Virus record (IMG/VR): IMGVR_UViG_3300025314_000006
From: a virus
Lineage: Duplodnaviria > Caudoviricetes
Strand: one strand, 5' to 3'
DNA: 64,000 nt
Shown here: positions 4,212 to 48,508 of the stretch, one piece after another
How the letters are laid out: the number at the start of each line of letters is the position of its first letter
Position numbering within the stretch: the first letter of the stretch is position 1
Notes under the pieces: model-generated
Told to the model about the DNA's origin: nothing
Seen by the model: only the letters and a program-made list of their open reading frames with translations
Databases searched by the model: none
Program-made: the position numbers and the translations under genes

Positions 4212-7200
4212 TTATTTTATTCTTGCTTGATAGAATCCTCCAATATCGTCAGCGAGAGGAGCATTACTTCCACTTGTAGACTCACCCCAATTTCCGACTA
4301 TGTTGAAACTCAGGGTCGCAACACACCACATAGGCTGAACTCGGCCACCAGAGCCATCTATAGACCAAGGTGAGTCATCATATGAAAACGAAATATTATT
4401 TATAATAACATCATAGTTGAACCAATCACCTAATTTTAAATGACTTACAGGTGGATATGTAAAAGAAAATCCTTTGCCAGAAGTATTTCTTGATGGTCTA
4501 GTAAGTTTGGATAAAAATTCCATTCTTGTTAAGAAATCTACTTTATCACCGGAAAAGAAAGCTGGCTGAAACATAAGATCTTTTTTCATTTCTTTTAATC
4601 TTTCTTTGGTTTCCTTAGTTTTTAAAGAAATGTCCCCAGAAGAATTAGTTTCTTCTCCACCTTTAATTAATTCTCTATAAATTTTTCCACCTTCATCTCC
4701 ATATTTACGATTTCCCACATTTGAAGAATTATCTTTTTGTTTAGCTTCTAAATTTGAAATTTCGGAATTCAATTCACTTATTTGAGATTTTAAAGTAGAA
4801 GTGTTTCCAACATCATCAGATGCTATAGCTAATAATTGAGCGTTATATTCAGATATTTGTTTCTTCTTATTTTTTATTTCTACTTCAATATTATCATTTG
4901 CTGTATTTATTCCATTTTCCGATTCAAAATGTTTACTAAAAGTTTCTGAATATGTTGTTGAATCTTCCCAATTAACACCAACATCAACAGTTTGAGAATA
5001 ATCAGTTAAAACAAAAAAGGATATGGAGCCTTCTCTATTTGAATTAGAATAAGTATAAATTGGCTCCGGTCTTCCAAGAAAATCTACCTTATTCCAATTT
5101 GCACTATCGCTATTTGAAAAAGACTTAACATATGGAGGAAAACTCATTGTATGATTAAGAGTAGAATCCCCATTTTGAATAGCGTAATTTTTTATTCTCA
5201 ATTCAAGGGTCCCAGCATCTTTACTTGGTTTATAGGGATTGGCTATTGTATATCTGGCATAAGCTTTTTTAGCATTTGGGTCAGCACTAATTAAAAATTT
5301 TTTAGTTCTTTGATTATAATTTTTAGATAAATCTATTCCTTCTGTTCCGGGAGCATTCTTTATTGTATTTATAATATGAGTAACGCCTCTTTCATGTTTA
5401 TTAAAATCAACAGCAATTGCATCTCCTGGAACTGTGTTTGACATCATAGAAATAGCCGTTCCTATTTCTCCATTTGTTGGTTTTAACAATTGTGTAACAG
5501 GAGATATTCCATCAGAATATTCCCCCGGAGATTGTAATCCTACATATGTTCCACCCTTAGCGCTAACTACTCCTGCTGGAGTTGAATTAGTAGATAATAC
5601 TTTTTCGTTTTTAAGCGTACTGTTAGATAATGATAACAGCTCTTTAAACCCTCCAGCGTTATGTCCATTTAATATACTGTATCCATCTAATAAATCATCA
5701 TATCTATTCCTGAAAACATTTTTCTGTAAATTATAAAGTTGAGCAGCATTGGTTATTTTCGCTAAAGGAATTCCAGAATCTGGTTTTGTTTCAAGCCCAT
5801 AAATTGGTTTTAAATTTTTGGTTGCGTCAAGTATTGTTCCTTTAAATTTCATAAGCTCTCTTATTGGAGCGCTCATAATTTCTAAATTAGATACACCTAC
5901 AAATGTGCTTGTTCCTCCCATCATTAAAGAAGTACCAAGACCATTAGAATTTCCATTTTTTGTTAATAAATTATGTCTAGTAGCATTTGCAATAGTTATT
6001 ATAGTATTTGGTCTATCAACATTTTTAGATAATAGAGAATTTCTTGTACCTACAGAATCAGATTCTAAGCTTAAATATTGAGGAACATTTGCTGATAATA
6101 AATCATTTCTTATACTTAATGAATTCTGATCTAAATCAATATTATTTACGACATTACTCGCCAATAATGCATTTCTTGAAATTAGTGCATCTCCATCTAA
6201 ATCAATAACTACAGGAACGTTTGCAGCAAGAAGAGCTCCTCTCGGAACCGCAGATAAAACATCTAAATCTGTATTTGACGGAACATTACTAGATAATAAT
6301 GTGTCTCTTAGAATTATTGAATTAGCGTCCAAATCAATATTGTTTGGTACATTGCTTGCCAATAATGAATCTCTTGGAATTACTGAATTTGCGTCTAAGT
6401 CAATATTATTTGGAACATTACTTGCTAATAGCGTGTTTCTTGGAGCAGTTGAGTTCGCATCTAAATCGATATTCACTGGAACGTTGTTTGCCAATAATGT
6501 ATTTCTCGGAACAGTTGAGTTTGCATCTAAATCTATATTCGCTGGAACGTTACTTGATAACAAATTTTCTCTTGCAGTTGTTGAGTTAGAATCTAAGTTA
6601 GTATTCGCTGGCACATTACTTGCTAATAATGAATCTCTTGGAACAGTTGAGCTTGCATCTAAATCTATATTCGCTGGAACGTTACTTGATAACAAATTTT
6701 CTCTCGTAGTCGTTGAGTTCGAATCTAAATTAACATTCGCTGTCACATTTGCTGAAAGTAATCCATCTCTTGTAATTGTTGAGTTCGCGTCTAAATTAAC
6801 TTTTGACGGCACATTTGATGATAGTAAACTTTCTCTTGTTACTGTCGACTTTGAATCTAAATTAATATTCGGTGCCACATTTGATGACAATAAACTATCT
6901 CTTGTAGCTGTTGAATTTGCGTCTAAATTAGCACTTATAGGAACATTTGACGACAACAAACTATCCCTTGAGATTGTTGAGTTTGCGTCTAAATCAATTT
7001 TTGATTGTACATTTGATAACAACAAGCTATCCCTTATGGCGGTTGAATTTGCATCTAAGTCAATTTTTTTAGATACATTACTCGATAATAAATTATCTCT
7101 TGTAGAAACTGCAGATAAATCAAGATTTATGTTTTTCTCTATATTTTTAAATTCCTGAGCTTCTCTGAACTGGGATGAATCTTTGTCGATATCAATTTTA

Positions 7201-20594: not shown

Positions 20595-20624
20595 TTGCAA
20601 CAAGCATCACAAAAATTCGTTTAA
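20595..20624 (+). promoter_or_regulatory. Bipartite motif TTGCAACA-N15-CGTTTAA upstream of array gene A
   Basis: Exact copy ending 6 nt before the ATG at 20631. Confidence 0.65.
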
Positions 20625-20630
20625 ATAGTT

Positions 20631-21077
20631 ATGAACCATTCGAAACTAAAAGAAAAGCAAAAAGAAACTAAGAATACGCCATGGACAAAACTTGGGATAA
20701 AGGTAGATTTGTGTTCGTTTTTGACGAGGAAAGTGCTGGTTGAAAAGTTTTCTCCTCAAAAAGCTAAAGAATCAGAAATGAAAGAGTTTTTTATTTCGAA
20801 GATTGATGGGTGTGAATTATTTATTCATAATAACTATGAAAATTACGTTTTTTATATAAAAGAAACCAATGGAAACAAAGAAATTTTAATGGAAAAAAAT
20901 GAAAAAAACAAGACATTTTATATAAAACATGATGGCATATGGTCAGTTTTTGAGAGCCGATACATGCTCCAATATGATGAGATTCAGTCACTTACGCAAG
21001 GATACCTTTTAGACAGTTTAAATTCTAAAGGGTATAAAACAATTGGGTATTTTTTTCATAATTGGGGACCCTTTTAG
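20631..21077 (+). CDS. Array-associated protein A (unknown function); C-terminus encoded by repeat 1 and spacer 1
   Basis: 148 aa; ends LLDSLNSKGYKT-IGYFFHNWGPF with the TAG stop inside repeat 2; paralog of 24116..24550. Confidence 0.8.
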   Translation: MNHSKLKEKQKETKNTPWTKLGIKVDLCSFLTRKVLVEKFSPQKAKESEMKEFFISKIDGCELFIHNNYENYVFYIKETNGNKEILMEKNEKNKTFYIKHDGIWSVFESRYMLQYDEIQSLTQGYLLDSLNSKGYKTIGYFFHNWGPF

Positions 21078-21237
21078 ACAGTTTAAATTCTAAAGGGTAT
21101 AAAACGGATAAATGTGGATGGAATACATAAGGTTGACTTTTAGACAGTTTAAATTCTAAAGGGTATAAAACGGATAAATGTGGATGGAATACATAAGGTT
21201 GACTTTTAGACAGTTTAAATTCTAAAGGGTATAAAAC
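21006..21237 (+). CRISPR. CRISPR-like repeat-spacer array A (4 repeats, 3 spacers; no cas gene in window)
   Basis: 35-nt repeat CTTTTAGACAGTTTAAATTCTAAAGGGTATAAAAC at 21006, 21071, 21137, 21203. Spacers are 30, 31 and 31 nt; spacers 2 and 3 are identical. The architecture is certain, CRISPR function is not. Confidence 0.5.
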
Positions 21238-21244
21238 TTAAAAA

Positions 21245-22165
21245 TTACCTTTTACTACTATTTTTAGATTTATTTGCAGCATCCTTTTCTGCTTTATTCT
21301 GTTTTTCTATTTCTTCAGATATTCTATTTATTGTCCATCTTCTATCAACTGTAGTCATTTCATAAGCCTGATTTCTTGTTATTCCTTTACCATAATAATA
21401 AGCCAAAAAACATTCTTCATTCACGGTGTTTCTGTGAGTTTCTGGAAGAGATAAAAATTCTTCATCTATTTTAACAATATCTTTTAATTTATAATCACAA
21501 GACGGGCAAGTATGCATTATTGTCTCTTCAAATCCCGGTTCAACTTTATCCATGAATTCTCTTAAAGACTTAGAATCTTTAATTTTCATAGATTTTAGAT
21601 AATTGATAATATATTGTTTATCTGTTTTATCATTAATGGAAGTTATTTGAGTTAAGTATCTACTCATGAGTTGTTTATTTTTCATGAGATGTGATTTATA
21701 AACTCTTAATGGTTCAAAATTTATCTGAATTGGATTTTCTAAAAACAAACTGCTTGGAACTATGTACTCAAATTCTCCATTTTCATTTGGAGGAACATTT
21801 ATTTCCTTCGCTTCTATTTTGGAAATTTTAAATTGACCTTTTGATTTTGTTTCACATTCCGGACAAACAAACTCCATTTCAATTTCATCACCAAAAGTAA
21901 CAGACCTAAGAAATAATAAAATAGCATCCCTATCACACACTAAGAGTTCTTCATATTCCAAATCGGAATTTAGAATAACATTATTCATTAAAATTTTTAT
22001 AGCATTACCTCTTTGTGCTAAATATGGAGAAGACAATAAAATCTCATCATAACCAGTAAGAGCTCTTACTTGTATATGCGATGTTCCATCTTTGTAAAAA
22101 AGTCCCATCGATGGTAGATAAATCTCATCAAATGGGACTTTTAATAGTTCAGGTGTAGGTTTCAT
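21245..22165 (-). CDS. Baseplate hub assembly / tail assembly chaperone (T4 gp26-like)
   Basis: DEIYLPSMGLFY...VRALTGYDEILLSSP...DRDAILLFLR...CPEC, second CPSC near the C-terminus. Confidence 0.7.
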   Translation of the reverse strand: MKPTPELLKVPFDEIYLPSMGLFYKDGTSHIQVRALTGYDEILLSSPYLAQRGNAIKILMNNVILNSDLEYEELLVCDRDAILLFLRSVTFGDEIEMEFVCPECETKSKGQFKISKIEAKEINVPPNENGEFEYIVPSSLFLENPIQINFEPLRVYKSHLMKNKQLMSRYLTQITSINDKTDKQYIINYLKSMKIKDSKSLREFMDKVEPGFEETIMHTCPSCDYKLKDIVKIDEEFLSLPETHRNTVNEECFLAYYYGKGITRNQAYEMTTVDRRWTINRISEEIEKQNKAEKDAANKSKNSSKR

Positions 22166-22185
22166 AAATCTTAACTATTTGAAAA

Positions 22186-23076
22186 TCAGACCTTTGCATT
22201 TGGCCAGAAAAGCCGAGCTGTAATCGGAACCACATCTTCATAAACATGTCCGCAATTTTTACATTCAAATTCGTGATCCATATCAACTCCTGGTTCGATT
22301 ATTCCAATATATTCTCTTAAAAAATAACTATCAGAAATTGGCATACCAGCAATTGCATTACTAATATATATTTTATCTCTAACTCCATTCATTTCCATTA
22401 TTTGAAGAAGATATCTTTCAGTAAGTAAATTGGAAGTTCCAGTGCTCTTTTTTATTTTTTTCATAGATTCTACTTTCTTAGCAAGATAATCTTCATCTTT
22501 ACCAGTAAGAAGTCTGAATTTAACCACCATTTTCATCTTTGGAAGCTTAATTGAAAATTCTCCATTTTGGTCAGGCTCTCCTTCTAAAGTTTTATATTTC
22601 AAAGATGAAAGCTTAACAGAAGTTTTATATTGCTCAGTACAATCAGGACAAGTCATCTTAACTTCATAATCATCTCCATAGCCGGTAGAACGTAAAGATA
22701 ATAAAACAGCGTTCTTATCACCTGTAAGCATATCATTCGGACGTAGAGTCTTATCAATTATAGCATGCTCCAAAAGAACGTCTAACACTTTACCATTCTT
22801 AATTAAATCAGGACTTGTTAAAATATTTTCATCTTCTGCAGTCAAATACTTAACCTTTAATGTTTTTTGACCATTTGGATAGTATTTTCCTTGTGAAGGG
22901 AGTTCTATCTCGTCTGTAGGAACCATAAATTCCGTATCGATAAATTGTGCCGGTACTCCAGAACTGTCAGACATACTTTTAATATGTTCAGCTTGCTGAT
23001 TAGTATTATTAGTTGTTTGTGGTGCATCTACACCTTTTTTACCTCCAAGGGTAATTGAATCATTTTTTTCTTCCAT
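22186..23076 (-). CDS. Baseplate hub assembly / tail assembly chaperone (T4 gp26-like), tandem paralog
   Basis: DEIELPSQGKYY...VKYLTAEDENILTSPDL...GDKNAVLLSLR...CPDC...CKNCG. Confidence 0.75.
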   Translation of the reverse strand: MEEKNDSITLGGKKGVDAPQTTNNTNQQAEHIKSMSDSSGVPAQFIDTEFMVPTDEIELPSQGKYYPNGQKTLKVKYLTAEDENILTSPDLIKNGKVLDVLLEHAIIDKTLRPNDMLTGDKNAVLLSLRSTGYGDDYEVKMTCPDCTEQYKTSVKLSSLKYKTLEGEPDQNGEFSIKLPKMKMVVKFRLLTGKDEDYLAKKVESMKKIKKSTGTSNLLTERYLLQIMEMNGVRDKIYISNAIAGMPISDSYFLREYIGIIEPGVDMDHEFECKNCGHVYEDVVPITARLFWPNAKV

Positions 23077-23158
23077 TTTTGTATGTTTTTATAATAGATA
23101 GTCTATAGAAATTTTTTGGTTCTTTAAAATTAACTTACTCTTGTAAAAAAGTGAATAA

Positions 23159-23629
23159 TTGTTTAATTTTAATATTATGAACGATAAAAAATTTGGGATT
23201 ATAGAAATACGAGATGGAGAAACGGTAAGAACTTATGAAGGACTATTTGAAATTCCTAAAATAAAAGTTGATATTGTTGAATATCAAGGATTTTATATGC
23301 CAACAAATAGAGCATGGGAAGATATTGAATTAAATTTTTTTGATTATTGTGATATTAGAAATCTTATATGGATTGATGAATGGTTGATAGAGCAATGTGA
23401 TATAGCAACTGGACTAACGATGCGTGCTGTTGACTATAAAAAGGACATCATTTTTAAAATTGGTGAATACCAATGGAATTTGTACGGTTGTTTTCTTAGA
23501 GATGTTAGTGATAATTTATTGAAAGCATTGACAAGAAGAGTTTTAGTTGAAAGGATAGGTTATCCAACAATGCAAATTTCAAAAACAATAGTATTAAATA
23601 TTGATAGAGCTATGTTAGTAGATATTTAA
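23159..23629 (+). CDS. Divergent tail-tube (gp19-like) paralog
   Basis: WEDIELNFFD...DEWL...TG...DYKKDI...WNLYGCFL parallels the tube gene at 63669. Confidence 0.5.
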   Translation: MFNFNIMNDKKFGIIEIRDGETVRTYEGLFEIPKIKVDIVEYQGFYMPTNRAWEDIELNFFDYCDIRNLIWIDEWLIEQCDIATGLTMRAVDYKKDIIFKIGEYQWNLYGCFLRDVSDNLLKALTRRVLVERIGYPTMQISKTIVLNIDRAMLVDI

Positions 23630-24062
23630 ATCTTGACTTTGTTAATTCGTAATTCTTTTTTAAATCATCTTCCCAAACTCTTTCTAATTCATATCCGTTA
23701 TTTTTTGCTATCGCATTTTTTTTAATATCATTGTAAAATGTTCTTTTCTGCATTTGAGACATTTCTTTCAATTCTTTATCTTTTGCATGCCAAAAAATTC
23801 CATCCGTTTCAACAAGCATGTTTTTACTTGGTATATAAAAATCATATATTTTTCCACCAACAATCTTTTGAGTTTCGTATTCAATATTTAATTCTTCTAA
23901 TAAGCTTGCGAAGGATTTTTCCGGAGCTGTAGGATTTTTATCCATTTTTTTGGCCATACCCTCAATATAAGCTTGTTTTTGCTTTTGAGTTCTGGGACGA
24001 TTTAGAGCATGCCTTTTAATTCCTCTTAAAATAGATGCTGTAGTTTTTTTCTTCTTTGCCAT
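23610..24062 (-). CDS. DUF559/Vsr-like PD-(D/E)xK endonuclease
   Basis: PTAPEKSF...YDFYIPSKNMLVETDGIFWH...DIKKNAIA...GYELERVWE. Confidence 0.8.
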   Translation of the reverse strand: MAKKKKTTASILRGIKRHALNRPRTQKQKQAYIEGMAKKMDKNPTAPEKSFASLLEELNIEYETQKIVGGKIYDFYIPSKNMLVETDGIFWHAKDKELKEMSQMQKRTFYNDIKKNAIAKNNGYELERVWEDDLKKNYELTKSRFKYLLT

Positions 24063-24115
24063 CTGTAATAAATAGATAAAGAAACAATATGATAGGATTT
24101 TACGTTTAAACAGTT

Positions 24116-24550
24116 ATGAGTCAATCAAAATTAAGAGAAAATCGAGAAAAAGTTAGTGATACACCATGGACAAACCTTGGTATAAAATTGGACTTATGTT
24201 CATTTTTGACGAGGAAAGTATTGGTTGAAAAGTTTTCTCCTCAAAAATCGAAAGAAATAGAAATGCGGAATTTCTTTATTTCTAAGATTGATGGATGTGA
24301 GATATATTTAAACTCGAAGCATCCGGATTCCGTTTTTTACGTCAAAAATAAAGAGATTTTAGTGGAAAAATATGAAAAAAACAAGGCGTTTTACATAAAA
24401 TATACCGACTTTTGGTCAGTTTTTGAGAGCCGATACATGCTCCAACATAATGAGATTCAGTCATTTACACAGATTACCCTTGAAGAGGGTCTAAAATCTA
24501 ACGGTTATAAAACTTTCCAACAATTCGAACATACCCCTTATCAACCTTGA
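24116..24550 (+). CDS. Array-associated protein B (unknown function); C-terminus encoded by repeat 1 and spacer 1
   Basis: 144 aa; ends TLEEGLKSNGYKT-FQQFEHTPYQP with the TGA stop inside repeat 2; roughly 60% identical to protein A by eye. Confidence 0.8.
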   Translation: MSQSKLRENREKVSDTPWTNLGIKLDLCSFLTRKVLVEKFSPQKSKEIEMRNFFISKIDGCEIYLNSKHPDSVFYVKNKEILVEKYEKNKAFYIKYTDFWSVFESRYMLQHNEIQSFTQITLEEGLKSNGYKTFQQFEHTPYQP

Positions 24551-24780
24551 AGAGGGTCTAAAATCTAACGGTTATAAAACTCAACCCTATATAGAATGCT
24601 TAATTGCAATCCTTGAAGAGGGTCTAAAATCTAACGGTTATAAAACGTTCAAATTCACGCATGCGGAAAATGAACTGCCTTGAAGAGGGTCTAAAATCTA
24701 ACGGTTATAAAACCAGCATCAAGATATTCTTTCAGTGTGAACGTCCCTTGAAGAGGGTCTAAAATACAACGGTTATAAAC
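24478..24780 (+). CRISPR. CRISPR-like repeat-spacer array B (5 repeats, 4 unique spacers; no cas gene in window)
   Basis: 36-nt repeat CCTTGAAGAGGGTCTAAAATCTAACGGTTATAAAAC at 24478, 24545, 24611, 24678, plus a degenerate copy at 24746. Spacers are 31, 30, 31 and 32 nt. Confidence 0.6.
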
Positions 24781-25128
24781 TTAAAATAACTCATTTTTTG
24801 TTAAAGATAAAGTTTCAAATCTTTTTTCGCCGTAAACCCAATATTCTTTTATTCCATTTGGATAAATTATGGCTGGCTTAAAGTGACCTCTGTGAATTTT
24901 TCCATGAAAATAATATCCTTCAATGCCAGATGAATGTATTGTGGCTGGTTGATCATTGTCTCTGTGTAACTTTCCGTCTTTATCAAAAAAATTATCCAAA
25001 GTTCCGTCTTTTTCATAAAATATAACTCGTTTTTCTTTCCAAGTATCTTTATGGTACCAAATTTTAGTATGGCCATAATCTTCATAGGGTTGTCTAAAAA
25101 ATTCAGTTATGACAAATCGTTCCAACAT
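24781..25128 (-). CDS. Protein with LHR.D.PA (MORN-variant-like) repeats
   Basis: KLHRDNDQPATIHSSG...KIHRGHFKPAIIYPNGIKEYW. Confidence 0.6.
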   Translation of the reverse strand: MLERFVITEFFRQPYEDYGHTKIWYHKDTWKEKRVIFYEKDGTLDNFFDKDGKLHRDNDQPATIHSSGIEGYYFHGKIHRGHFKPAIIYPNGIKEYWVYGEKRFETLSLTKNELF

Positions 25129-26424: not shown

Positions 26425-28209
26425 ATGGACATACAGGAATTAGCACAAAAAATATCAATAGAAAATTTAGATAAATTAAATAAAAAAGAAGTTAAACAAT
26501 ACACTTTGCTTAATAAAGAATTTCATAAATCATTAAGAAAAATATTTATTGACTTAAATTGTTTTAAAAATCATGGTGCATATGATTATATTTATGTTAT
26601 AAATTCATTGAATTATTCTTTAGAAACATTTGAAGATTTACAGATTTTTATAAAAAAATTTTTAACAAACAAAAAAAGAGATGTGAGTTTCGAAAAGTTA
26701 ACATTAATTTCAAAAATTAATGAAAAAATTTTACCTCAAATAATTAAATTCACAAATAATTATCCATCTGATATTGTTAATGTTGTAAGATGTTCGATGA
26801 TAATTCAAAATATAAAAACATTTCCTACATGTTTGCATTGCGGAATTAAACCAGTATATTATTTTCAATCAAAGATAGGAATATACTGTTCTAAGGAATG
26901 TGCTTATAATTCTGATGGCAGGGCACAAAAAACGTTTGACACTAAACTAAAATTATATAACAATGGACATTATACTAATACAGAAAAAAGCAAAGTAACT
27001 ATTATAAATAAATATGGAGTTAATCACATATCTCATATACCTGGATTTGCAGATAAAGTTAAACAAACAAAATTAGAAAATTTTGGAGATGAAAATTACA
27101 ACAATAGAGAGCAGGCTAAAGAAACCTGTATTGAAAAATATGGAGTTGAAAATGTTTTACAATTAAAAGAAACGCAGAATAAAATAAATATAACCAAATT
27201 AAAAACATTATCATCATTTAAAATTATGAATATTTCAGAGATTGTTGATATTATTTTAAAAAATAAATTATATAATTTTTCTCAAAAAAAGTTCAATAAA
27301 TACAAAAAACAAAACCCGGAATTTAAATTTAATTTTTTGCGACATCGTAAAAACTTTATGTTTGGTCACAATAATTATGATATAGATATAATAAAATTAT
27401 TTTATTCCATATCTTATAAAATTCAAACTTTTGATGAAGTTAAGTTATTTATTAACACTTTTATTATTAACGGCAAAAATCATATTCATGAAAATGTTCT
27501 TAATTTTTTTACAGAAAAATTCCGTCTTGATTTAAAAGATAAAATTTTAGAAATGACCAAAAATTTTCCAAATAAAATATCTATGGTTGGCAGAAGTTTA
27601 TTAATTTCCAAAAACATAAAAGAGTTTCCTAAGTGTTTAACATGTGAAAAAAATCCAGTTTCTTGGTCAAATTCGTCAAAACTTGGAATATATTGTTCTA
27701 AAAAATGTGCGGACGCATCTTGTGTTAAGCATAATAAAAGTAAAATAACAAACATAGAAAGATATGGAGTAGAAAATGTCATGCATAATCAAAATATTTT
27801 CGAGAGAAGTCAGAAAAATGGCTTTAAAATGTATAAATACAAAGATACCTCTTTAAATTATCAAGGTAAATATGAATTATATTTTTTAGAACTAATGGAA
27901 AATGCAGGACTGTTAAATGAAATTAAAAGAGGTCCAAGTTTCAAATATAAATGGGAAAATAAAATTACTACATATTATTCTGATTTTTTGTTTAAAGAAA
28001 GAATAATTGAAATAAAGTCAGTATGGACATATGATAGTAAAGGGAAAGATATTAAAAAAGGACTGAAAAATGAAGCAAAATGGCAATCCGTAAGAGAGTG
28101 TGGTATGGAAATAGATATTATAATAGATGATGATAAAAAAATAAAAATCTTAGAATATGTTACAACAATTGCACAAACATTAAATAAAAATTCGGAAGTA
28201 AAATCGTAA
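26425..28209 (+). CDS. Putative homing endonuclease: Zn-finger and KYGV repeats plus C-terminal PD-(D/E)xK domain
   Basis: Duplicated FP.CL.C...YCSK.CA module; KETCIEKYGVEN repeats; YQGKYE...YYSDF...IIEIKSVWTY. Confidence 0.7.
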   Translation: MDIQELAQKISIENLDKLNKKEVKQYTLLNKEFHKSLRKIFIDLNCFKNHGAYDYIYVINSLNYSLETFEDLQIFIKKFLTNKKRDVSFEKLTLISKINEKILPQIIKFTNNYPSDIVNVVRCSMIIQNIKTFPTCLHCGIKPVYYFQSKIGIYCSKECAYNSDGRAQKTFDTKLKLYNNGHYTNTEKSKVTIINKYGVNHISHIPGFADKVKQTKLENFGDENYNNREQAKETCIEKYGVENVLQLKETQNKINITKLKTLSSFKIMNISEIVDIILKNKLYNFSQKKFNKYKKQNPEFKFNFLRHRKNFMFGHNNYDIDIIKLFYSISYKIQTFDEVKLFINTFIINGKNHIHENVLNFFTEKFRLDLKDKILEMTKNFPNKISMVGRSLLISKNIKEFPKCLTCEKNPVSWSNSSKLGIYCSKKCADASCVKHNKSKITNIERYGVENVMHNQNIFERSQKNGFKMYKYKDTSLNYQGKYELYFLELMENAGLLNEIKRGPSFKYKWENKITTYYSDFLFKERIIEIKSVWTYDSKGKDIKKGLKNEAKWQSVRECGMEIDIIIDDDKKIKILEYVTTIAQTLNKNSEVKS

Positions 28210-28213: not shown

Positions 28214-30490
28214 TTAAAACACTTTTCTAAATTCAGCACTTCCATCAAAAGATAACCATCCTTTTTCTTTTTTAAATTTAGTCACATAAACACTATTATT
28301 CTTAAGCTTTGACTCAAGTTTTTTATACATATTATCCCACATAATAACTTTTTTAACTGTAGCCCCATCGGATAAGTGTAATACATACATTTTTCTTCCT
28401 GTTTTAGTTAATTTTTGTTCTACATTATTTAAACAGAAATAATAATAATTAATAGGATTATCAAAATTTGTTACCGGCTCTAACGCTACTCCATATTCTT
28501 CAACAAAAGCATCTCTGAGTTCATGCAGTTTTTTGAGTAAACCGAGATCAAGATTACAAACTTCTAAAAATTCTTTTTGCTTTATATCATCTGGAGTTTT
28601 ATTAAATTTCTTATAAACAGTAACAGAATCCATTCCAAAATTTCCAAATATATCTAATTGCATAACGTTTTTTACTTTCGCAGTTCTCCATGCCATAATT
28701 TCCTCTCTGGATGGTGACCAATCATCAAATAGTCCAGCTTTTAAACACGCTTCAAAACTGCCTTTATTAAATTTTTTAAAAGGTACCGAGAAAAACTCAT
28801 CCCTCGTTAACGTTCCTATATTTTTGGCTTTTAATTCTTTAAATGCAATATCTCCCATTCCATTTATTCCAGAAAATCCCATTGCAATTTTTTTATTTTC
28901 AATTGATGTCCATTCCCAATTAGATTTTCTTACAGGAGGGGCAATTTCAATCCCTTTAGACATAGCAGAAAGAAGTGCAGCTTGTAACCATTGTTTTTCT
29001 TTTTCTTTATCGCTATTACTTTTAGGGTGATTTAAAAGTGCTGTATAGAATTCAGTCGGATAATAGTGTTTTAAAAAAAGGGTTTGCATAGCTATGTAGC
29101 TATATGAAGTTGCATGTGATTTATTGAACGAATATCCCAAATATTTAATTAACCAGTCTTCTATTTTAGTTACTTCTTCTTCAGATAAACCCTTTGTTTT
29201 TGCTCCGTCTATGAATTTTTTCCACAAATCAATATAATTTTTATAATTTTTATTTTTTAATTCATCTTCTGTTAATATGTCTCCACGTAATTTTTTTGCA
29301 ATTATTTTACTAGCTGAGTCCATATATTTTCTTAAGTTATCACCATCTCCTTCATCCATTCCACCAATTTCCTTAGCAATAAACATTAGTTGTTCTTGAT
29401 AAATTAGTACACCATTAGTTTCTTCTAATAATGGAGCTAAAAGTTCATGTACATATGTTTTTTTTTCTGGATTGAATTTATTTTGTATAAATTCAATATG
29501 AGCTCCCATTCCAAGACTTCCAGGTCTATATAATGAATTTGCTGCTGTTAATTCTTCAAATGTTTCAATCTGAATTCCTTTTATTAAAGCATTCATTCCC
29601 TCAGATTCAAATTGAAAAATCCCTTGATTATTACCCATTCTAAGTTCTATAAAAAGATTTGGGTCTTCAAGATTCACATAATCAACTTGCTCCTGTATGT
29701 CTATTCCTTTGTTTTCTTTTACAAGTTTTATTGCTGATTTTATAACATTAAGAGTAGTTAAATTTAATCTGTCTAATTTTAAAATACCAAGAGAAGATAA
29801 ATCCTTTCCACTTCCAGATTCTTGATAACCTGAAACTATTTGACCTTTACAAATATTAACTGGCATATAATCCCAAACTGGTCCGGGCGTAATAACAATA
29901 CCAGCAGCATGCTTTCCTAAATTCCTTATTTGTCCTTGAAGTTTTAGAGTAATACTTAATATTTCTGCATTATCTGGAGAAGTTAACCAGTTTTTAACTC
30001 TTTCTGAGCACTGTGGGTCATTTGGCCATGTTTCGAACCATTCTTGTAAAGAAATATCCCAAGTCGGTTTCGTTGGCATTTCTCTTGTTACAGCAAAAAC
30101 ATCTGACTCAAACCCAGATTCCCCTCCGAGAGCTTTAACCACATCTTTTATACATCCTTTTTCATTAAAAGTGCCAAAAGTAATTACCGGTATAACTCTT
30201 TCTTTTCCATATTTATCATACAAAAATTGTAATGTTTTTGCATCTGAACCTGTTTCAAAATCGATATCGATATCAGGAATCGATTTCCTTTTTGTGTTTA
30301 AAAATCTTTCAAAATATAAACCAAAACGAAGAGGGTCTATTTTTGTTATATCAAGACAGTATGATAATAAACAACCAGATGCAGAATTATGAACTCCTAA
30401 ACTTTCAACATTGTAAGAGTGAGAATTTTCTACTGTTAAATCGTGAACTCTACCTTTATATTTAATTATATTTTTTGATTTTAATTTCAT
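28214..30490 (-). CDS. dnaE: DNA polymerase III alpha subunit, C-terminal half, with an N-terminal split-intein fragment
   Basis: ITKIDPLRFGLYFERFLN, PDIDIDF, GKHAAGIVI, GIFQFES, GVLIYQEQLM, YSFNKSH motifs. Confidence 0.95.
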   Translation of the reverse strand: MKLKSKNIIKYKGRVHDLTVENSHSYNVESLGVHNSASGCLLSYCLDITKIDPLRFGLYFERFLNTKRKSIPDIDIDFETGSDAKTLQFLYDKYGKERVIPVITFGTFNEKGCIKDVVKALGGESGFESDVFAVTREMPTKPTWDISLQEWFETWPNDPQCSERVKNWLTSPDNAEILSITLKLQGQIRNLGKHAAGIVITPGPVWDYMPVNICKGQIVSGYQESGSGKDLSSLGILKLDRLNLTTLNVIKSAIKLVKENKGIDIQEQVDYVNLEDPNLFIELRMGNNQGIFQFESEGMNALIKGIQIETFEELTAANSLYRPGSLGMGAHIEFIQNKFNPEKKTYVHELLAPLLEETNGVLIYQEQLMFIAKEIGGMDEGDGDNLRKYMDSASKIIAKKLRGDILTEDELKNKNYKNYIDLWKKFIDGAKTKGLSEEEVTKIEDWLIKYLGYSFNKSHATSYSYIAMQTLFLKHYYPTEFYTALLNHPKSNSDKEKEKQWLQAALLSAMSKGIEIAPPVRKSNWEWTSIENKKIAMGFSGINGMGDIAFKELKAKNIGTLTRDEFFSVPFKKFNKGSFEACLKAGLFDDWSPSREEIMAWRTAKVKNVMQLDIFGNFGMDSVTVYKKFNKTPDDIKQKEFLEVCNLDLGLLKKLHELRDAFVEEYGVALEPVTNFDNPINYYYFCLNNVEQKLTKTGRKMYVLHLSDGATVKKVIMWDNMYKKLESKLKNNSVYVTKFKKEKGWLSFDGSAEFRKVF
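30386..30490 (-). mobile_element. Split intein C-fragment (35 aa)
   Basis: MKLKSKNIIKYKGRVHDLTVENSHSYNVESLGVHN followed by Ser (+1); blocks F and G are recognisable. Confidence 0.9.
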
Positions 30491-30494
30491 ATTA

Positions 30495-31556
30495 TTATAA
30501 TGTTTTTACATATTCAAGTGTCATTTTGTGTAGGAAAATCATAAAATCAAAATTAAATCCTCTATCCAAACATTCTTGTTTCTTAAAATCGTTATTAATT
30601 TTACATTTATTATATATCCAAGTGGATTTTACTTCAATTATTTTATTTATTGAGATAATGTATATATCTGGAAAATATCTTCTTACAATGTTATCTATGT
30701 CTGTATAAAATATTTTTCCTATTTTATTTTGTATGTTTTTATTGCCAATTATCAAATCTTCTTCTTTAAATTCTTTTAATAAAATATCTAAAGCCTTATT
30801 TTCATACCCTTGCAGTTTTATAATTTTTCCACTTGGCATTATATATTCTTTAAATTTAAAGCTATTTTTTTGTGATTTTGAAAAAATTTTTTCATTTTGC
30901 ATAACACTATAAACTCCATATTTTTCAAAAACAGCATCCAAAATATTTTGTCTATAATTTTCATCTTGCCATTTTTCCAACATTTTATTACTCTGATTTT
31001 CTTTATAACCATCTTTTTTCCAAACTTCTATCATTTTTTTGCTTTGATTTTCTTTGAATTCTGGTCTATTTTTACATATTTTTTGTGCAACAGAAGTATT
31101 TTTTAACCAATTAAGAGATGATGTTACTTTTTTATTTATGCATTTATTACAAATTGGTTCGAGTGAAAAATAATCTCTTTTTATAATATTTCTACATGCT
31201 AATTCACTTTTTTTATTACAAGCTTCACAACAAAAAGTTATTTTCATTTTGGAACTTTTAAACGCTTCTATTTTCCATTCTCCTAAAGCAATAAAATCAC
31301 TTAATTCTATTCTGTTATTTATAGACTTTATATCATAGGCATTTAATAAATTTTCTAAATCTCTATTTTTAAATGGAATTTTACTTTCTTTTAATAATTT
31401 TCTAAATAATTTTAAGTTAATATTAAATTCTTTGGAAAATTTTAATATTTCATTTTTTGTTAAAAATCCATTTTTATTAATAATGACATTTAATATTTCT
31501 TTTTGTTCTTTTGTTATTTCTTTTTTCATGACTTTATATTTACTGTAAATAGTCAA
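30495..31556 (-). CDS. Free-standing putative homing endonuclease between the dnaE halves
   Basis: CxxC...CxxC; KYGVYSVMQ; LQGYE...RRYFPDIYI...IIEVKSTW PD-(D/E)xK domain. The true start may be the second Met (31529). Confidence 0.75.
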   Translation of the reverse strand: MTIYSKYKVMKKEITKEQKEILNVIINKNGFLTKNEILKFSKEFNINLKLFRKLLKESKIPFKNRDLENLLNAYDIKSINNRIELSDFIALGEWKIEAFKSSKMKITFCCEACNKKSELACRNIIKRDYFSLEPICNKCINKKVTSSLNWLKNTSVAQKICKNRPEFKENQSKKMIEVWKKDGYKENQSNKMLEKWQDENYRQNILDAVFEKYGVYSVMQNEKIFSKSQKNSFKFKEYIMPSGKIIKLQGYENKALDILLKEFKEEDLIIGNKNIQNKIGKIFYTDIDNIVRRYFPDIYIISINKIIEVKSTWIYNKCKINNDFKKQECLDRGFNFDFMIFLHKMTLEYVKTL

Positions 31557-31573
31557 AAAAAATCCTTATTGGA

Positions 31574-33091
31574 CTAAGTCGGTAAATAATCTACTTCCAT
31601 AATTTCATCTTCATTAGTTAAATCATTTGCTTTAACCCAACTTCTATTACTTGTTAGAAACTCATGGTCTAATGTGCATCTTATTTTTATTTTGTTTTCA
31701 AATTCTAATTCAACAATATCTTCTTCTATGTCATAAGACAAAACATCTATTACTGTTTGCTTATTTCCATAAGCATCTATCACTTCTTCTCCTATATCTA
31801 TTATTTCTATAGAAGAATATAATCCATTAGACATTTTTACTCTACTTCCTGGCAAAAAACATCCTCTTCCAGGTCCTGTGGCTATATCATTTTCCTTACA
31901 AAACTTAATTAATTCCCAAACAACCATAAAATAATCAGACACTTTTTTATCGTCAATTACTTTTAGTTCGTAATCAAGCCTGTCCTTATATTTTTGAATA
32001 ACTTCATCATCAATTTTTACTAAACCATTTTTTTTATAAATGTTTAATTTTTGTTTTAATTTTGCATGTGCAAGTTTTGTTATTATTTCCTTAGTTCCTG
32101 TTTCTTTAAAATACTCAATAACATCCGGTGTTGGCTCGTATTTTGGAAATTTCTCTACATCCGTTTCAAACTCAAAATTACATTTATCAGCAACTTTTAA
32201 AGTGTTATCTAAACATTCTTCAATAAATTTATCCGGATAATTATATCCAAATTCTTTATTCATTTTATAAAAATCATCTCTATTAGAATAATACAGATGT
32301 CGTGCTTGAAGTTTAAATGCTGTAGGGTCATCTACAGACTTATGTTGATTAATGGAAATAATCACATCCTGTAAACGATTATTTTCAGGACTCGAATAGT
32401 GAACATCACCTGTAAGTATTGGTGTTAATGAATATTTTTTAATCATTCTTAAAATAAAATGATTATATTTTTTTTGTTGAGGGATTTCATTAAATTGTAA
32501 TTCTGCCACAAAATTGTTTCCAAATTCTCGCATTAAAAGTTTTATTCTTTCTTCTGCTTCTTGTTCCTTGCCTTCTTCTATTAACCTTGCCATTTTACTG
32601 GCCATACAACTGCTCGTAATCAAAAGTCCGGACTTATTCTCAATAAGCCATTCTGTTGTTATTCTGCCCCTACGATAATACCCTTCTGTGAAAGAACGAT
32701 AAGTTAATTTATTTAAATTAACAAACCCTTCTTTATTCATTATAATAATTGATTGATGAGTATCTTTCCCCTCATAGGATTTTTCTTCATGTTTATCCAT
32801 TTCATCATTCAGATAAGCTTCCATTCCAATTATCGGCTTAATTCCAGCAGCTTTACATTTATTATAAAATTCAAATGTACCAGATGCATGACCGTGGTCA
32901 ATTAAAGTTATAGCAGGATGATGGTAATCCTTCGCTAAACTTACGTAATCGTCTATCTTCGCGGAACCATCGAGTAAGCTATACGAACTATGTAAATGCA
33001 AGTGTACCATAGGTTTTCTATGTAAACATCCATCATTTTTACAACTACATCTTTCCATTATATTTTGTTTTTTACAAATATAATAAAACAA
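31574..33091 (-). CDS. dnaE: DNA polymerase III alpha subunit, N-terminal half (PHP domain), with a C-terminal split-intein fragment
   Basis: HLHLHSSYSLLDGS, LIDHG, GIKPIIGMEAY, GDVHY motifs; the extein ends at GPGRG. Confidence 0.95.
   Translation of the reverse strand: MFYYICKKQNIMERCSCKNDGCLHRKPMVHLHLHSSYSLLDGSAKIDDYVSLAKDYHHPAITLIDHGHASGTFEFYNKCKAAGIKPIIGMEAYLNDEMDKHEEKSYEGKDTHQSIIIMNKEGFVNLNKLTYRSFTEGYYRRGRITTEWLIENKSGLLITSSCMASKMARLIEEGKEQEAEERIKLLMREFGNNFVAELQFNEIPQQKKYNHFILRMIKKYSLTPILTGDVHYSSPENNRLQDVIISINQHKSVDDPTAFKLQARHLYYSNRDDFYKMNKEFGYNYPDKFIEECLDNTLKVADKCNFEFETDVEKFPKYEPTPDVIEYFKETGTKEIITKLAHAKLKQKLNIYKKNGLVKIDDEVIQKYKDRLDYELKVIDDKKVSDYFMVVWELIKFCKENDIATGPGRGCFLPGSRVKMSNGLYSSIEIIDIGEEVIDAYGNKQTVIDVLSYDIEEDIVELEFENKIKIRCTLDHEFLTSNRSWVKANDLTNEDEIMEVDYLPT
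31577..31861 (-). mobile_element. Split intein N-fragment (95 aa)
   Basis: CFLPGSRVKM (block A) and IRCTLDHEFLT (block B TxxH); ends WVKANDLTNEDEI. Confidence 0.9.
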
Positions 33092-41636: not shown

Positions 41637-42035
41637 TTATTTTAACAATTCAGCTATATCTGAATGAATTTTTTCATTCACCATTGACTTCCATTCATCT
41701 GAGCCACTTTTAATGAAGTTTCTTATCTGAGTGGCGCTGATATTAGCAATAGTTTCAGGTGGCGTGTACATATTTGTTTCATATCCAACTGTTCTGCCCC
41801 AATTTACAGATTCTATATCTGGAATTATAATAACGGCAACATTTTGACCTTCATAAATTTTTTCCCATAAAAATTTAACCTGCTCCGCAGATAATGGGTT
41901 TTTTTCATCCGGAACAATATCTCTTATTGCTATTAACACCGGAATTCCTTTATTTAATTTTTGCTCGAACAGCCATTGGTGAGCGAGGGAGCAAGGCTGA
42001 AAACGTCCAATAAATAGAGCATTAGGTTTTTTCAT
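41637..42035 (-). CDS. Cytidylyltransferase/NMN-adenylyltransferase-like nucleotidyltransferase
   Basis: FIGRFQPxxxAH (the HxGH motif reads SLAH) and NISATQIR. Confidence 0.75.
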   Translation of the reverse strand: MKKPNALFIGRFQPCSLAHQWLFEQKLNKGIPVLIAIRDIVPDEKNPLSAEQVKFLWEKIYEGQNVAVIIIPDIESVNWGRTVGYETNMYTPPETIANISATQIRNFIKSGSDEWKSMVNEKIHSDIAELLK

Positions 42036-42883
42036 AGTATGTAATTTTCAAGTATTTTTTTCACATTTTTAAATCTATTATCCATTACTAAAATATAATC
42101 ATATTCTTTTTCTGCGGCTTCTTTTTTTAATAAATTTATTTCTAAATTATTTTCCCAAATATATGTAGATTTTATCTCAAAAACAATATTACTATTTTTT
42201 ATTGTAAAATCAGAAAAATAAGAATGTGTTTTTCCATTTGCATCATTATAGTTTATTATTGGACCACGTTCTATTAAATTTAATAAATTAAAACTTTCAA
42301 CATATAACAAAAATTTCAATTCATAAGAACTTTGATAATCAATTTCTTTATATTGTTTTGTAAATATTTTACCCCATCTTTTTCCTGGTTTTTGCCTTCC
42401 TTCTTTATAAGATAATAATGTTGCTTTGCTTAACTTATCTTTTGTTTCTTGTGTTCTTTTTTTGCCAGTATTAAGTATTGCTATTTTAGCCCAGCCATTT
42501 GCTTTTTTTATTTTTTCTTTCGATGTTTCCCATGTAAATGGATTTCCTTTTTCCTCAAGAAGTTTTTTTGCTGCTAATTTAAAATTTTCATTAGGAGGAA
42601 CTCCATACATACCATTTCTTTTACCTTTATTAAAACATTTATTACAATAGTGAATGGTTTTTTTTGAATCTAAATCACGTATTCTTCTATTATGAACCGC
42701 ATCGCAATCATCACATTTTAATGTTAATTTTAAAGTTCTAAATCTTGTTGTTTTTAGTAATGCCCAATGAACTTTAATTGGTGTATTTAATTCTGGACAA
42801 TAACCTAATTTTTTAGTCCAATCACTAAGTCGGCAACTATTAGGTAGTTCTATTTCTAATTCTTCAAATTCTTTAATATACAT
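42032..42883 (-). CDS. Putative homing endonuclease (NUMOD3-like repeat plus PD-(D/E)xK)
   Basis: GKRNGMYG; TGKKRTQETKDKLS; YQSSYE...YFSDF...VFEIKS. Confidence 0.7.
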   Translation of the reverse strand: MYIKEFEELEIELPNSCRLSDWTKKLGYCPELNTPIKVHWALLKTTRFRTLKLTLKCDDCDAVHNRRIRDLDSKKTIHYCNKCFNKGKRNGMYGVPPNENFKLAAKKLLEEKGNPFTWETSKEKIKKANGWAKIAILNTGKKRTQETKDKLSKATLLSYKEGRQKPGKRWGKIFTKQYKEIDYQSSYELKFLLYVESFNLLNLIERGPIINYNDANGKTHSYFSDFTIKNSNIVFEIKSTYIWENNLEINLLKKEAAEKEYDYILVMDNRFKNVKKILENYIL

Positions 42884-47288: not shown

Positions 47289-47351
47289 TATACACAAAGA
47301 TAACTATTTTATATTAAACGGATGAGTAACTAAATTGTTTTTAAAAAAATG

Positions 47352-47422
47352 TTGCTCCAAATAGACTCGAACTATTATCTCGCACCTTCAAAGGGTGGCA
47401 TCCTGCATTAGACGACAGAGCA
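47352..47422 (-). tRNA. tRNA-Gln(TTG)
   Basis: Acceptor TGCTCTG/TGGAGCA; anticodon loop CTTTGAA; T loop TTCGAGT. Confidence 0.8.
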
Positions 47423-47427
47423 ATATG

Positions 47428-47499
47428 TTTTCACTCAGAGATTTGAACTCCAATTACAACAGTCAAAATGTTGTGTCCTGCCAGTTAGACGAAGTGAAA
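47428..47499 (-). tRNA. tRNA-Gln(TTG)
   Basis: Acceptor TTTCACT/AGTGAAA; anticodon arm CAACA-TTTTGAC-TGTTG; T loop TTCAAAT. Confidence 0.8.
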
Positions 47500-47502
47500 A
47501 TA

Positions 47503-47545
47503 TAAAACAAAAAACCCGAGACATTTTTAAGTGTCCCGGGTTTTT
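47503..47545 (-). terminator. Attenuator terminator upstream of the tRNA-Gln pair
   Basis: AAAAACCCGGGACA-CTTAAAAA-TGTCTCGGGTTTTTT followed by GTTTT. Confidence 0.85.
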
Positions 47546-47569
47546 CGCGTAAGTATTAAATTTTTCTCT

Positions 47570-47641
47570 TTACGACATAGCAATTCCAGAACTCTTACTC
47601 AGAGTTTGTTGTTGTTGTTGCTGTACGAATATTGTTTTCAT
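47570..47641 (-). promoter_or_regulatory. Leader peptide MKTIFVQQQQQQTLSKSSGIAMS (six consecutive Gln codons)
   Basis: ATG at 47641; CAG CAA CAA CAA CAA CAA; TAA at 47570; terminator begins about 25 nt downstream. Confidence 0.8.
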
Positions 47642-47695
47642 TTTTCTTTTAAATATTAACTAATTTTTATAAACTCGTTGTTTTTAATTGACTTG

Positions 47696-47767
47696 TAACC
47701 CCGACGGTAGTCGAAACCGCATTTTGAATTCGAAAAATTCACGTCCTAACCATTAGACGACGGGGCT
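47696..47767 (-). tRNA. tRNA-Glu(TTC)
   Basis: Acceptor AGCCCCG/CGGGGTT; anticodon arm TGAAT-TTTTCGA-ATTCA. Confidence 0.85.
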
Positions 47768-47856
47768 ATATATATCTTAAACCTATCCAAATTACGTGCA
47801 CTTAATTCAGAAAAAAATTTTATAAATTCTTTCAGTTATAAAATATTCTTTCGGCT

Positions 47857-47939
47857 TGGTGCCCCTGGCGGAAGTCGAATCCGCAAAAACCAAGTTTCTA
47901 AAACTTGTAGCTGTGCCAGTTTGCATATGTCACAGGGGC
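47857..47939 (-). tRNA. tRNA-Leu(TAG), short variable arm, encoded CCA
   Basis: Acceptor GCCCCTG/CAGGGGC then ACCA; anticodon arm CAAGT-TTTAGAA-ACTTG; enlarged D region. Confidence 0.75.
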
Positions 47940-47944
47940 ATTTA

Positions 47945-48112
47945 TTACATTTTTTGCAATTGCGATTGCAAATCTGCAATTTTTCTTTGATAATCTGGAA
48001 GATTTATTTCTTTAGTTGATGACGTTTTTTTAGTCAACTCTAAAGTCATTTCATCTTGTAAGAATTTAAGTCTTTCCTGCAGTCTTTGTTTTTTCTTTTC
48101 TAATTTTCCCAT
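47945..48112 (-). CDS. Small coiled-coil protein inside the tRNA cluster
   Basis: MGKLEKKKQRLQERL...; start moved to the ATG at 48112 because the track start overlaps a tRNA. Confidence 0.6.
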   Translation of the reverse strand: MGKLEKKKQRLQERLKFLQDEMTLELTKKTSSTKEINLPDYQRKIADLQSQLQKM

Positions 48113-48135
48113 TTTATTGTTTATTATATTTATTG

Positions 48136-48210
48136 TAGTCAGAGAGGGGATTGAACCCTCGACCTTTTGTGTATAAGACAACTGCTACTTGACCGCTGAG
48201 CTACCTGACT
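48136..48210 (-). tRNA. tRNA-Ile(TAT)
   Basis: Acceptor AGTCAGG/TCTGACT; anticodon arm TTGT-CTTATAC-ACAA; T arm GAGGG-TTCAATC-CCCTC. Confidence 0.8.
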
Positions 48211-48215
48211 ATTTG

Positions 48216-48295
48216 TACCGGAAAAAAGATTTGAACTTTCACGCATTTCAGCGACAGATTTTGAATCTGCTGTGTCTACATTCCACCATTCCGGC
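48216..48295 (-). tRNA. tRNA-Leu(CAA)
   Basis: Acceptor GCCGGAA/TTCCGGT; anticodon arm GCAGA-TTCAAAA-TCTGT; long variable arm. Confidence 0.85.
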
Positions 48296-48317
48296 ATTAT
48301 TTAAAAGAACTATTCTG

Positions 48318-48399
48318 TGATCGGGAGAGGATTCGAACCTCCAATTGGCTTTCGCCACAGTTTAGAAAACTGCTTCAATATCCATTCTGGCACCCAATC
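48318..48399 (-). tRNA. tRNA-Arg(TCT) with a long variable arm
   Basis: Acceptor GATTGGG/CCCGATC; anticodon arm GCAGT-TTTCTAA-ACTGT; variable arm GGC-GAAA-GCC. Confidence 0.75.
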
Positions 48400-48416
48400 A
48401 TTTTATTTTACAACAG

Positions 48417-48499
48417 TGGTCGAGACAAGATTCGAACTTGCAATTGACTTTCGTCACAGTTTAGGAAACTGTTTCAATATCCATTTCTGACACCCAACC
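48417..48499 (-). tRNA. tRNA-Arg(CCT) with a long variable arm
   Basis: Acceptor GGTTGGG/CTCGACC; anticodon arm ACAGT-TTCCTAA-ACTGT; variable arm GAC-GAAA-GTC. Confidence 0.75.
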
Positions 48500-48508
48500 A
48501 TTATATAG

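Follow-up and report, generated by a model that had tools for sequence, protein, structure and literature searches.

The 64,000-nt stretch of viral DNA analyzed here (IMG/VR record IMGVR_UViG_3300025314_000006, Caudoviricetes; hereafter the window) encodes two paralogous open reading frames (ORFs), ORF A and ORF B, each of which runs in frame into a CRISPR-like array, with the last 12 in-domain codons of the gene forming the first 36-nt repeat (Table 1). The two proteins are 63% identical and their genes lie 3.5 kb apart, both on the plus strand. Repeat 1 supplies the codons for residues 126-137 of ORF A; those for residues 138-148 come from spacer 1 and the first part of repeat 2. Each of the two ORFs passes through repeat 1 in frame and terminates within repeat 2 (TAG at 21075-21077 in ORF A and TGA at 24548-24550 in ORF B), since the length of spacer 1, 29 or 31 nt, is not a multiple of three. 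This arrangement had been proposed in a preliminary description made from the DNA letters alone, and the ORF and repeat coordinates bear it out. The same description held that the two repeats differ, which they do, at 8 of 36 positions by our measurement against the 27 of 35 identities that it counted. It was also right that only the repeat of array A folds well (-7.9 kcal/mol, z -3.1, compared with -2.6 kcal/mol, z +0.2, for repeat B) and that no cas, reverse-transcriptase or recombinase gene is adjacent, none having turned up when 30 window ORFs were scanned with Pfam. The window belongs to RIF_PHAGE_CU_29_17, a 503,412-bp phage genome from Rifle sediment (GCA_902731165.1, contig CACVIJ010000001.1; 99.98% identity across 5.4 kb), of which ~118 kb (~23%) was read. 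This genome contains at least four gene-plus-array units; beyond the two in the window, one lies ~3 kb (P0004/L010) and one ~22 kb (P0003/L004) before the window start, each with its own repeat variant.

The gene-plus-array unit is real and widespread. Using a profile search of 1.84 billion representative proteins, we detected 432 family members (E <= 1e-3), each representing a cluster at 50% identity. They are mostly 100-180 aa long, the domain is always C-terminal, and in very many of them a 12-residue end motif (hydrophobic-E-x-x-hydrophobic-K-hydrophobic-x-G-hydrophobic-T-P) recurs every 22 residues; in other members the second repeat is out of frame. DNA was gathered for 50-52 non-redundant gene copies from IMG/VR, JGI, ENA and NCBI contigs, and at least one further 36-nt repeat follows the gene in 40-42 of them. 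The preliminary description had suggested collecting homologs and asking whether each is followed by an array whose repeat equals its own 3' coding sequence, and the answer was positive for 40 of 50 copies. Because the gene-array junction recurs at this frequency in unrelated phage contigs, it is not a chance arrangement. Arrays of one, two, three, four, five and six repeats were found at 10, 14, 9, 9, 5 and 3 gene copies, respectively, and all follow the layout of a 36-nt repeat with a 29-32-nt spacer; among 73 unique spacers, 54 measure exactly 30 nt. The codon register is also shared: in 31 of 42 arrays the best-fitting repeat opens at the third base of a codon and closes 4 nt short of the point where the domain model ends, and the differences in the remaining 11 appear to be tie-break shifts of a simple repeat search. 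The repeat sequences themselves are very unlike between phages.

Family units can be numerous within one genome. We found seven in a single 72.5-kb contig, tandem units in contig L027 and two units in a temperate phage of 51 kb that is complete and has terminal repeats, and no neighboring gene is conserved among family units. In contig L056 (6001-8283), five tandem units and eight spacers, all stop-free and of exactly 30 nt, are read as a single ORF of 760 aa, with start codons missing from the internal units; this is either a real polyprotein or a chance read-through picked by its ORF length. In the searches made, the family was confined to viral or unclassified metagenomic contigs: the motif IWSVFESK had no relatives in 185,579 bacterial and archaeal species genomes, tblastn of two members against GenBank phages gave no match, and neither did a DNA search of GenBank phages with the region of interest. 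The arrays of the window phage are identical in independent NCBI, JGI and ENA assemblies from many samples. A full-text literature search found no description of a gene-fused array.

Closer inspection of the repeats showed that they change in the manner of codons. Across 30 distinct units, the entropy at the first, second and third codon positions is 1.02, 0.82 and 1.35 in the repeat-1 codons and 1.08, 0.79 and 1.22 in the 20 upstream codons, in counts that are not independent since the sequences behind them are mutually related; from this similar profile we conclude that the repeat drifts as ordinary coding sequence. The third base of the penultimate repeat codon is A in 30 of 30 units (ACA or AAA), the base after the repeat is fully variable, and many repeats have complementary four-base ends (GGUG...CACC or GUUG...CAAC). 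The invariant A and the complementary ends are signs of a remaining nucleotide-level constraint. No hairpin is conserved across 18 repeat types. Three or four repeat variants can be told apart among the four arrays of RIF_PHAGE_CU_29_17, every variant being uniform inside its own array, and repeats of different arrays in one genome differ at up to 9 of 36 positions.

The arrays are polarized. Mismatches to the array consensus average 0.58 in the first, 1.2 in the middle and 3.31 in the last repeat. Of 26 arrays, 17 have a last repeat that fits less well than the first, and 2 have one that fits better. The L004 array ends distally in an old repeat of the array-B type, preceded by three repeats of a newer type. 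Forms of array B with fewer spacers occur in nature: P0001 has no spacer, the gene being fused to the terminal repeat, and a contig in run X10 passes directly from 24477 to 24678 and retains the distal spacer only. The forms with zero, one and four spacers are nested and have the distal end in common. Together, the decayed distal repeat and the variants with common distal spacers indicate growth at the gene end, as in CRISPR adaptation. Close relatives can carry the same repeat with wholly different spacers (L022 compared with array A, and L001 with array B); turnover is not fast, however, since the arrays of the window phage are identical across several samples. These patterns fit arrays that would grow gene-proximally by copying repeat 1 and shrink by recombination between repeats.

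The protein could not be assigned to a known family. Pfam and PHROGs searches with ORF A and ORF B detected no family, and Pfam searches with 91 family members gave noise only. An earlier AlphaFold2 model from 13 sequences was poor (predicted local distance difference test, pLDDT, 49); with a 91-sequence alignment the model reached a pLDDT of 88.6 and a predicted template modeling score of 0.78, showing a helix, a four-stranded meander and two helices. In this model the repeat-encoded residues 126-137 finish the last helix with pLDDT > 93, and the repeat thus encodes a structural part of the protein. Using the 91-sequence model, Foldseek detected nothing in PDB and a wide structure search with VIA gave a best Z of 4.1, while the neighbors in AFDB clusters, BFVD and ESM Atlas were uncharacterized proteins only (viral in BFVD and Atlas). 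The only PDB profile match, PcrIIC1 (E = 0.48), was rejected as a PIN-domain protein with a different fold. On the predicted structure, the ~100-aa domain is a new fold without a Pfam family. Conserved residues are mostly aromatic or hydrophobic, and the isoelectric point ranges from 4.3 to 9.6 across the family and therefore does not suggest a generic nucleic-acid binder; judged by its sequence, the protein resembles neither an enzyme nor such a binder.

Spacers were compared with the contigs that carry them. Among ~90 unique spacers, eight match their own viral contig outside the arrays. Five of these belong to the nine spacers of G010 (162 kb, 73% complete; two perfect and three with one mismatch), one perfect match each was found in G008 and G011, and one match of 28/30 in G005. 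Relative to the ORF covering the match, four are antisense, three sense and one intergenic, and the idea of antisense or RNA targeting that the first self-match had raised was dropped on these counts. No flanking motif is common to the matched protospacers. The genes in which they lie include one with a nucleotidyltransferase domain, a tail gene, one for a glutamate-receptor-like channel, and several others without known function. The channel gene (SBP_bac_3, Lig_chan and Ion_trans_2; L032:3904-4989, G008 159983-161068) lies directly upstream of a family gene and holds the perfect match to a spacer of the contig's other family array, ~100 kb off. In G010, the two tandem arrays with self-matching spacers are followed 3 kb downstream by a DinG/XPD-type helicase gene (DEAD_2 and Helicase_C_2; L093:16593-18374, G010 156593-158374); helicases of the DinG type go with type IV CRISPR systems and are also common phage replication genes. 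It is partly shown that, where enough of the genome was read, most spacers come from the phage's own DNA or that of a near-identical relative.

We searched for cas genes at the units and elsewhere in the genomes that carry them. Pfam scans found none in the window or beside any unit examined, and Cas1 (PF01867) was absent from 12 family-bearing IMG/VR contigs, including the complete 51-kb phage. Two of these 12 contigs have TnpB-like genes, with no family repeat beside them. For RIF_PHAGE_CU_29_17, with a Bacteroidetes host profile, the published table reports "CRISPR-Cas Y, Cas1 Y, Cas2 Y, interference cas14K, type V" (Al-Shayeb et al. 2020, Table S1, PMC7162821). The published Cas14K corresponds to P0164, a 403-aa protein with OrfB_IS605 and TNB domains (L075:10001-11212, at ~359-360 kb of the record), ~250 kb from the arrays, which lie at ~50-137 kb of the record. 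Its gene follows an ORF of 52 aa and stands alone on the strand opposite to its neighbors. Relatives of P0164 carry the annotation of IS605 OrfB transposases, and the 10 kb to either side of the gene contain neither an array nor a family repeat. Cas14K was therefore rejected as the effector of the family arrays, being a lone TnpB-like gene with no array within 10 kb, and the label "type V CRISPR-Cas" for this phage looks unsupported. A run of N occupies ~7729-8108 of L075 in the same record.

Upstream sequences were examined for signals of expression. A motif, CGTTTAAAYAGTT, directly precedes the start codon of ORF A, recurs upstream of ORF B and is common to five of six aligned units, the L002 unit departing from it; no Shine-Dalgarno sequence precedes the start codon in the aligned units. 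A sigma-70-like match (TTGAGA, 17 nt, TATGAT) lies inside ORF A ~27 nt upstream of repeat 1, overlapping the invariant WSVFE codons, with an equivalent match inside ORF B, and this pair could be an internal promoter of the array. The total count of sigma-70-like matches in the region is not above chance. Across the family, synonymous sites of the WS[VF]FE codons are nearly invariant, and the Val/Phe codon always ends in T, giving TTTTTGA. Rfam searches, at gathering and E-value thresholds, returned tRNAs and noise only and no CRISPR direct-repeat family.

Table 1. Coordinates of the gene-plus-array units and of other features in the window
Feature	Position	Strand	Description
ORF A	20631-21077	+	148 aa; residues 1-137 are the family domain
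ORF B	24116-24550	+	144 aa; ORF A paralog; final in-domain codons are repeat 1 of array B
Array A	21005-21237	+	Four 36-nt repeats starting at 21005, 21070, 21136 and 21202
Array A spacers	21041-21069, 21106-21135, 21172-21201	+	29, 30 and 30 nt; spacers 2 and 3 identical
Array B	24478-24781	+	Four identical 36-nt repeats (24478, 24545, 24611, 24678), then a fifth, terminal one at 24746 that is degenerate (4 mismatches)
Array B spacers	24514-24544, 24581-24610, 24647-24677 (B3), 24714-24745	+	31, 30, 31 and 32 nt
Pre-start motif CGTTTAAAYAGTT	20612-20630	+	Directly before the ORF A start codon
Pre-start motif	24097-24115	+	Same motif as for ORF A, upstream of ORF B
Sigma-70-like match	20950-20978	+	Inside ORF A
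Promoter-like match	24423-24451	+	Inside ORF B; equivalent to that of ORF A
DUF559/Vsr-like endonuclease gene	23610-24062	-	Adjoins ORF B
DUF7487 paralogs	26425-28209, 30495-31556, 42032-42883, 60017-61312, 61677-63533		Five proteins
DNA polymerase III alpha	28214-33091	-	Two ORFs; upstream piece 31574-33091
tRNA cluster	47351-48589	-	Gln x2, Glu, Ile, Leu x2, Arg x2
Tandem DNA repeats	6260-7105		Periods of 66 and 132 nt

The window is AT-rich (GC content, 28.6%). Its genes include those for T4-type baseplate hub, sheath and gp23 capsid proteins, for a DNA polymerase III alpha subunit in split form and for eight tRNAs. A DUF559/Vsr-like endonuclease gene adjoins ORF B. Five paralogous DUF7487 proteins, one also with a TnsA-like endonuclease signal, are probably a multi-copy family of the homing-endonuclease type dispersed among core genes. 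The upstream piece of the DNA polymerase III alpha terminates in an intein/Hint fragment, which points to a split intein or an interrupted gene. Tandem repeats with periods of 66 and 132 nt are located within a 1216-aa ORF without Pfam match, which is probably a fibre-like repeat protein; the 66-nt period equals that of the arrays, but the sequences are unrelated.

In their layout the units share several features with CRISPR arrays: 36-nt repeats, inside the 23-50 nt of the generic definition, and 29-32-nt spacers, with one spacer duplicated in array A; repeats that are uniform next to the leader and degenerate at the terminus, older spacers lying distally; and spacers from mobile-element DNA, given the eight self-matches to phage DNA and a match of spacer B3 in a foreign contig. 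The cas genes that accompany CRISPR arrays were found at none of the units examined. Arrays of huge phages are compact, with a median of six repeats (PMC7162821), and the arrays of RIF_PHAGE_CU_29_17 described here are presumably those flagged by array finders in that study, which assigned this genome a type V Cas14K effector that is not co-located with them. Viral mini-arrays and solitary repeat units are likewise short, viral and cas-less, with spacers related to the virus's own kind (PMC11656645; SPV1/SPV2, PMC6858448). However, the repeats of known viral mini-arrays are identical to those of the host and lie in non-coding DNA (PMC11656645), whereas repeat 1 of the family is the last 12 codons of a phage gene. 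Unlike mini-arrays that exploit host Cas proteins, the family arrays vary in repeat within one genome, and the repeats of the window's phage group have no match in the 185,579 species genomes; while spacers of such mini-arrays target related viruses, four family spacers match the carrier contig perfectly. Racr elements (RNA anti-CRISPRs) or solitary repeat units are lone non-coding mimics of a host repeat, whereas the family repeat is coding, array-specific and without host match; 10 of 50 family genes do have one repeat only. Off-target integration by Cas1-Cas2 was reportedly described by Nivala and colleagues in 2018 as giving rise spontaneously to neo-CRISPR loci, in which the local sequence becomes the repeat. 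Such loci are seeded at a former non-array sequence, as the family arrays may be, but they are rare accidents at random sites, whereas the family arrays involve one gene family and one codon register across at least 432 protein clusters.

The explanation that we favor, tentatively and with considerable room for error, is integration of the Cas1-Cas2 type with the gene as leader and a non-destructive function, either as an integration decoy or as a source of guide RNAs. The unit would consist of a phage gene for the ~100-aa new-fold domain whose last 36 nt serve as repeat 1, the gene body taking the place of the leader. A Cas1-Cas2-type integrase would add ~30-bp fragments just upstream of the last 36 nt and duplicate those 36 nt. 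The enzyme could be supplied by the host or, in RIF_PHAGE_CU_29_17, by the phage itself, for which the published table lists Cas1 and Cas2. Each new repeat would be copied from the gene end, and the array repeat would in this way equal the 3' end of its own gene. Such copying leaves the repeat free to drift within the limits that coding sets, while the distal one, being the oldest, decays. Taken together, a geometry of 36/30, a duplicated junction repeat, decay at the distal end and ~30-bp capture from either strand amount to a signature of Cas1-Cas2-type integration. The repeat being whatever the last 12 codons are implies that the site would be chosen by the leader side and a 36-bp ruler, with little dependence on repeat sequence. 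Perfect self-matches are tolerated, and the arrays therefore cannot be steering destructive interference at their carrier. Most likely the unit would absorb spacer integration while infection proceeds, as a sink or decoy present in several copies; instead or as well, the co-transcribed array RNA might provide non-cleaving guides. The analysis shows the architecture, its codon register, the polarity, the mode of repeat evolution, the self-matching spacers and the lack of neighboring cas genes; integrase, array transcription and function alike we infer.

Several observations weigh against integration at a gene acting as leader. No integrase was located, and the Cas1 and Cas2 of RIF_PHAGE_CU_29_17 are known from the published table only. 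A degenerate pattern that covers all five repeat variants of the phage group gave no hits in the 185,579 bacterial and archaeal species genomes, which is no proof of absence, as the collection need not include the host. The complete 51-kb phage has arrays but no recognizable cas gene, and a host enzyme would therefore need to accept very different repeats. No matches were found for 12 spacers of RIF_PHAGE_CU_29_17 in 118 kb of the same genome, where ~2 would be expected at the rate of G010. A foreign contig of 8,950 nt (runs X10 and X12), more abundant than the phage, holds a 30/33 match to spacer B3 with non-array flanks, and the phage itself is therefore not the source of every spacer. Neither B3 nor the sequence flanking this foreign match was found in IMG/VR. 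Finally, no reason is shown why one gene family should serve as the leader.

The alternatives differ in what would use or build the arrays. The preliminary description had proposed orphan arrays working with host Cas proteins, and more generally these could be phage mini-CRISPR arrays that guide a Cas effector encoded elsewhere (a host type II or VI-B system, or the phage) against related phages or the phage's own genes, with the upstream gene as promoter or leader, a reading that we consider somewhat unlikely. In type VI-B arrays the repeats are 36 nt long, opening with 5'-GUUG and closing with CAAC-3', the spacers measure 30 nt and the locus is without Cas1/Cas2 (bioRxiv 10.1101/092577). The family agrees in these lengths and in having no cas1/cas2 beside its arrays; the distant relative L027 has GTTG...CAAC repeat ends and many other repeats have GGUG...CACC, the predicted host phylum is Bacteroidetes, and half of the self-matches have 1-2 mismatches, as if the spacers came from relatives. 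The window repeats, however, begin with CCUU and finish with AAAC, and the repeat middle is A-rich in gene orientation rather than poly-U. The large ORFs scanned contained no Cas-like domain, the DNA read yielded no cas13b gene, and no anti-repeat was found in the window with up to 9 mismatches. The bias of type VI-B spacers toward mRNA complementarity has no counterpart in the four antisense and three sense matches, which argue against RNA targeting, and the four perfect matches to the carrier would be self-destructive under an active nuclease. Repeats that evolve like codons and differ at up to 9 of 36 positions in one genome would be hard for one effector to use, and no match to a host repeat was found in the species genomes searched. 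The orphan arrays of the preliminary description thus fit type II/VI-B in their 36/30 geometry and are possible, but strained by the missing host repeat, the codon-like repeats and the self-matching spacers.

Other readings dispense with Cas proteins. A Cas-independent adaptive array, in which the ~100-aa phage protein directs 30-bp capture at its own gene end or uses the RNA, we regard as unlikely, and slightly more so a self-contained Cas-free system in which the small protein recognizes its own gene end as DNA or RNA and directs insertion or uses the array RNA, for example by chaperoning RNAs of a guide-like or antisense kind; the preliminary description had raised a related option, that the protein processes or binds its array RNA. 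A self-contained system would account for a gene-array link and codon register kept across deep divergence (E-values near 1e-8) with unrelated repeats, for scattered multi-copy units (the seven in 72.5 kb, the tandem units of L027 and the five fused in L056), for the lack of a conserved neighboring gene, for arrays in a complete phage without cas genes and for a new fold found only in phages. Yet a ~100-aa domain with mostly hydrophobic conserved residues and isoelectric points of 4.3-9.6 looks like neither an enzyme nor a nucleic-acid binder, 30-bp insertion with 36-bp duplication is known only from Cas1-Cas2, and 10 of 50 gene copies have no array. A cassette acting at the protein level, in which gain and loss of repeat-spacer units would change the C-terminal tail, had also been proposed in the preliminary description and proved weak; we judge it very improbable. 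A period of 66 nt comes to 22 codons; of 73 spacers, 54 preserve the frame and 53 contain no stop in the gene frame, compared with 46 and 39 in the other two frames; the 760-aa ORF of L056 spans five units and eight spacers, and natural variants have different tails. This stop-free excess is marginal, though, and spacers of 29-32 nt break the frame at random, the first being often 29 or 31 nt, so that a stop soon follows, as it does in ORF A and ORF B. Trp and Cys abound in the unconserved tails, the spacers copy unrelated phage genes from either strand, and the ORF tails look like translated non-coding DNA. That the arrays are an assembly artefact or an ordinary protein tandem repeat is scarcely credible: Logan contigs do break at arrays, but the same arrays recur in the independent assemblies, identical repeats alternate with unrelated spacers of 29-33 nt, and dozens of unrelated contigs have the same layout.

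If this picture stands, a large phage-specific family (at least 432 clusters) is tied to arrays that CRISPR annotation misses or misfiles, those of RIF_PHAGE_CU_29_17 having been published under a distant TnpB-like "Cas14K". Protein-coding constraint, and not an effector, would dictate the repeat, which bears on what an integrase needs at the leader-repeat junction and on how arrays are born. The high share of self-matches points to a non-destructive role, as an acquisition decoy or in gene regulation, and either would be new in the repertoire of phages against CRISPR. A Cas-independent array, if true, would be a second way to build repeat-spacer memories or a model of CRISPR arising from coding sequence. 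With a size of only ~0.6 kb, the unit is open to direct acquisition and competition assays.

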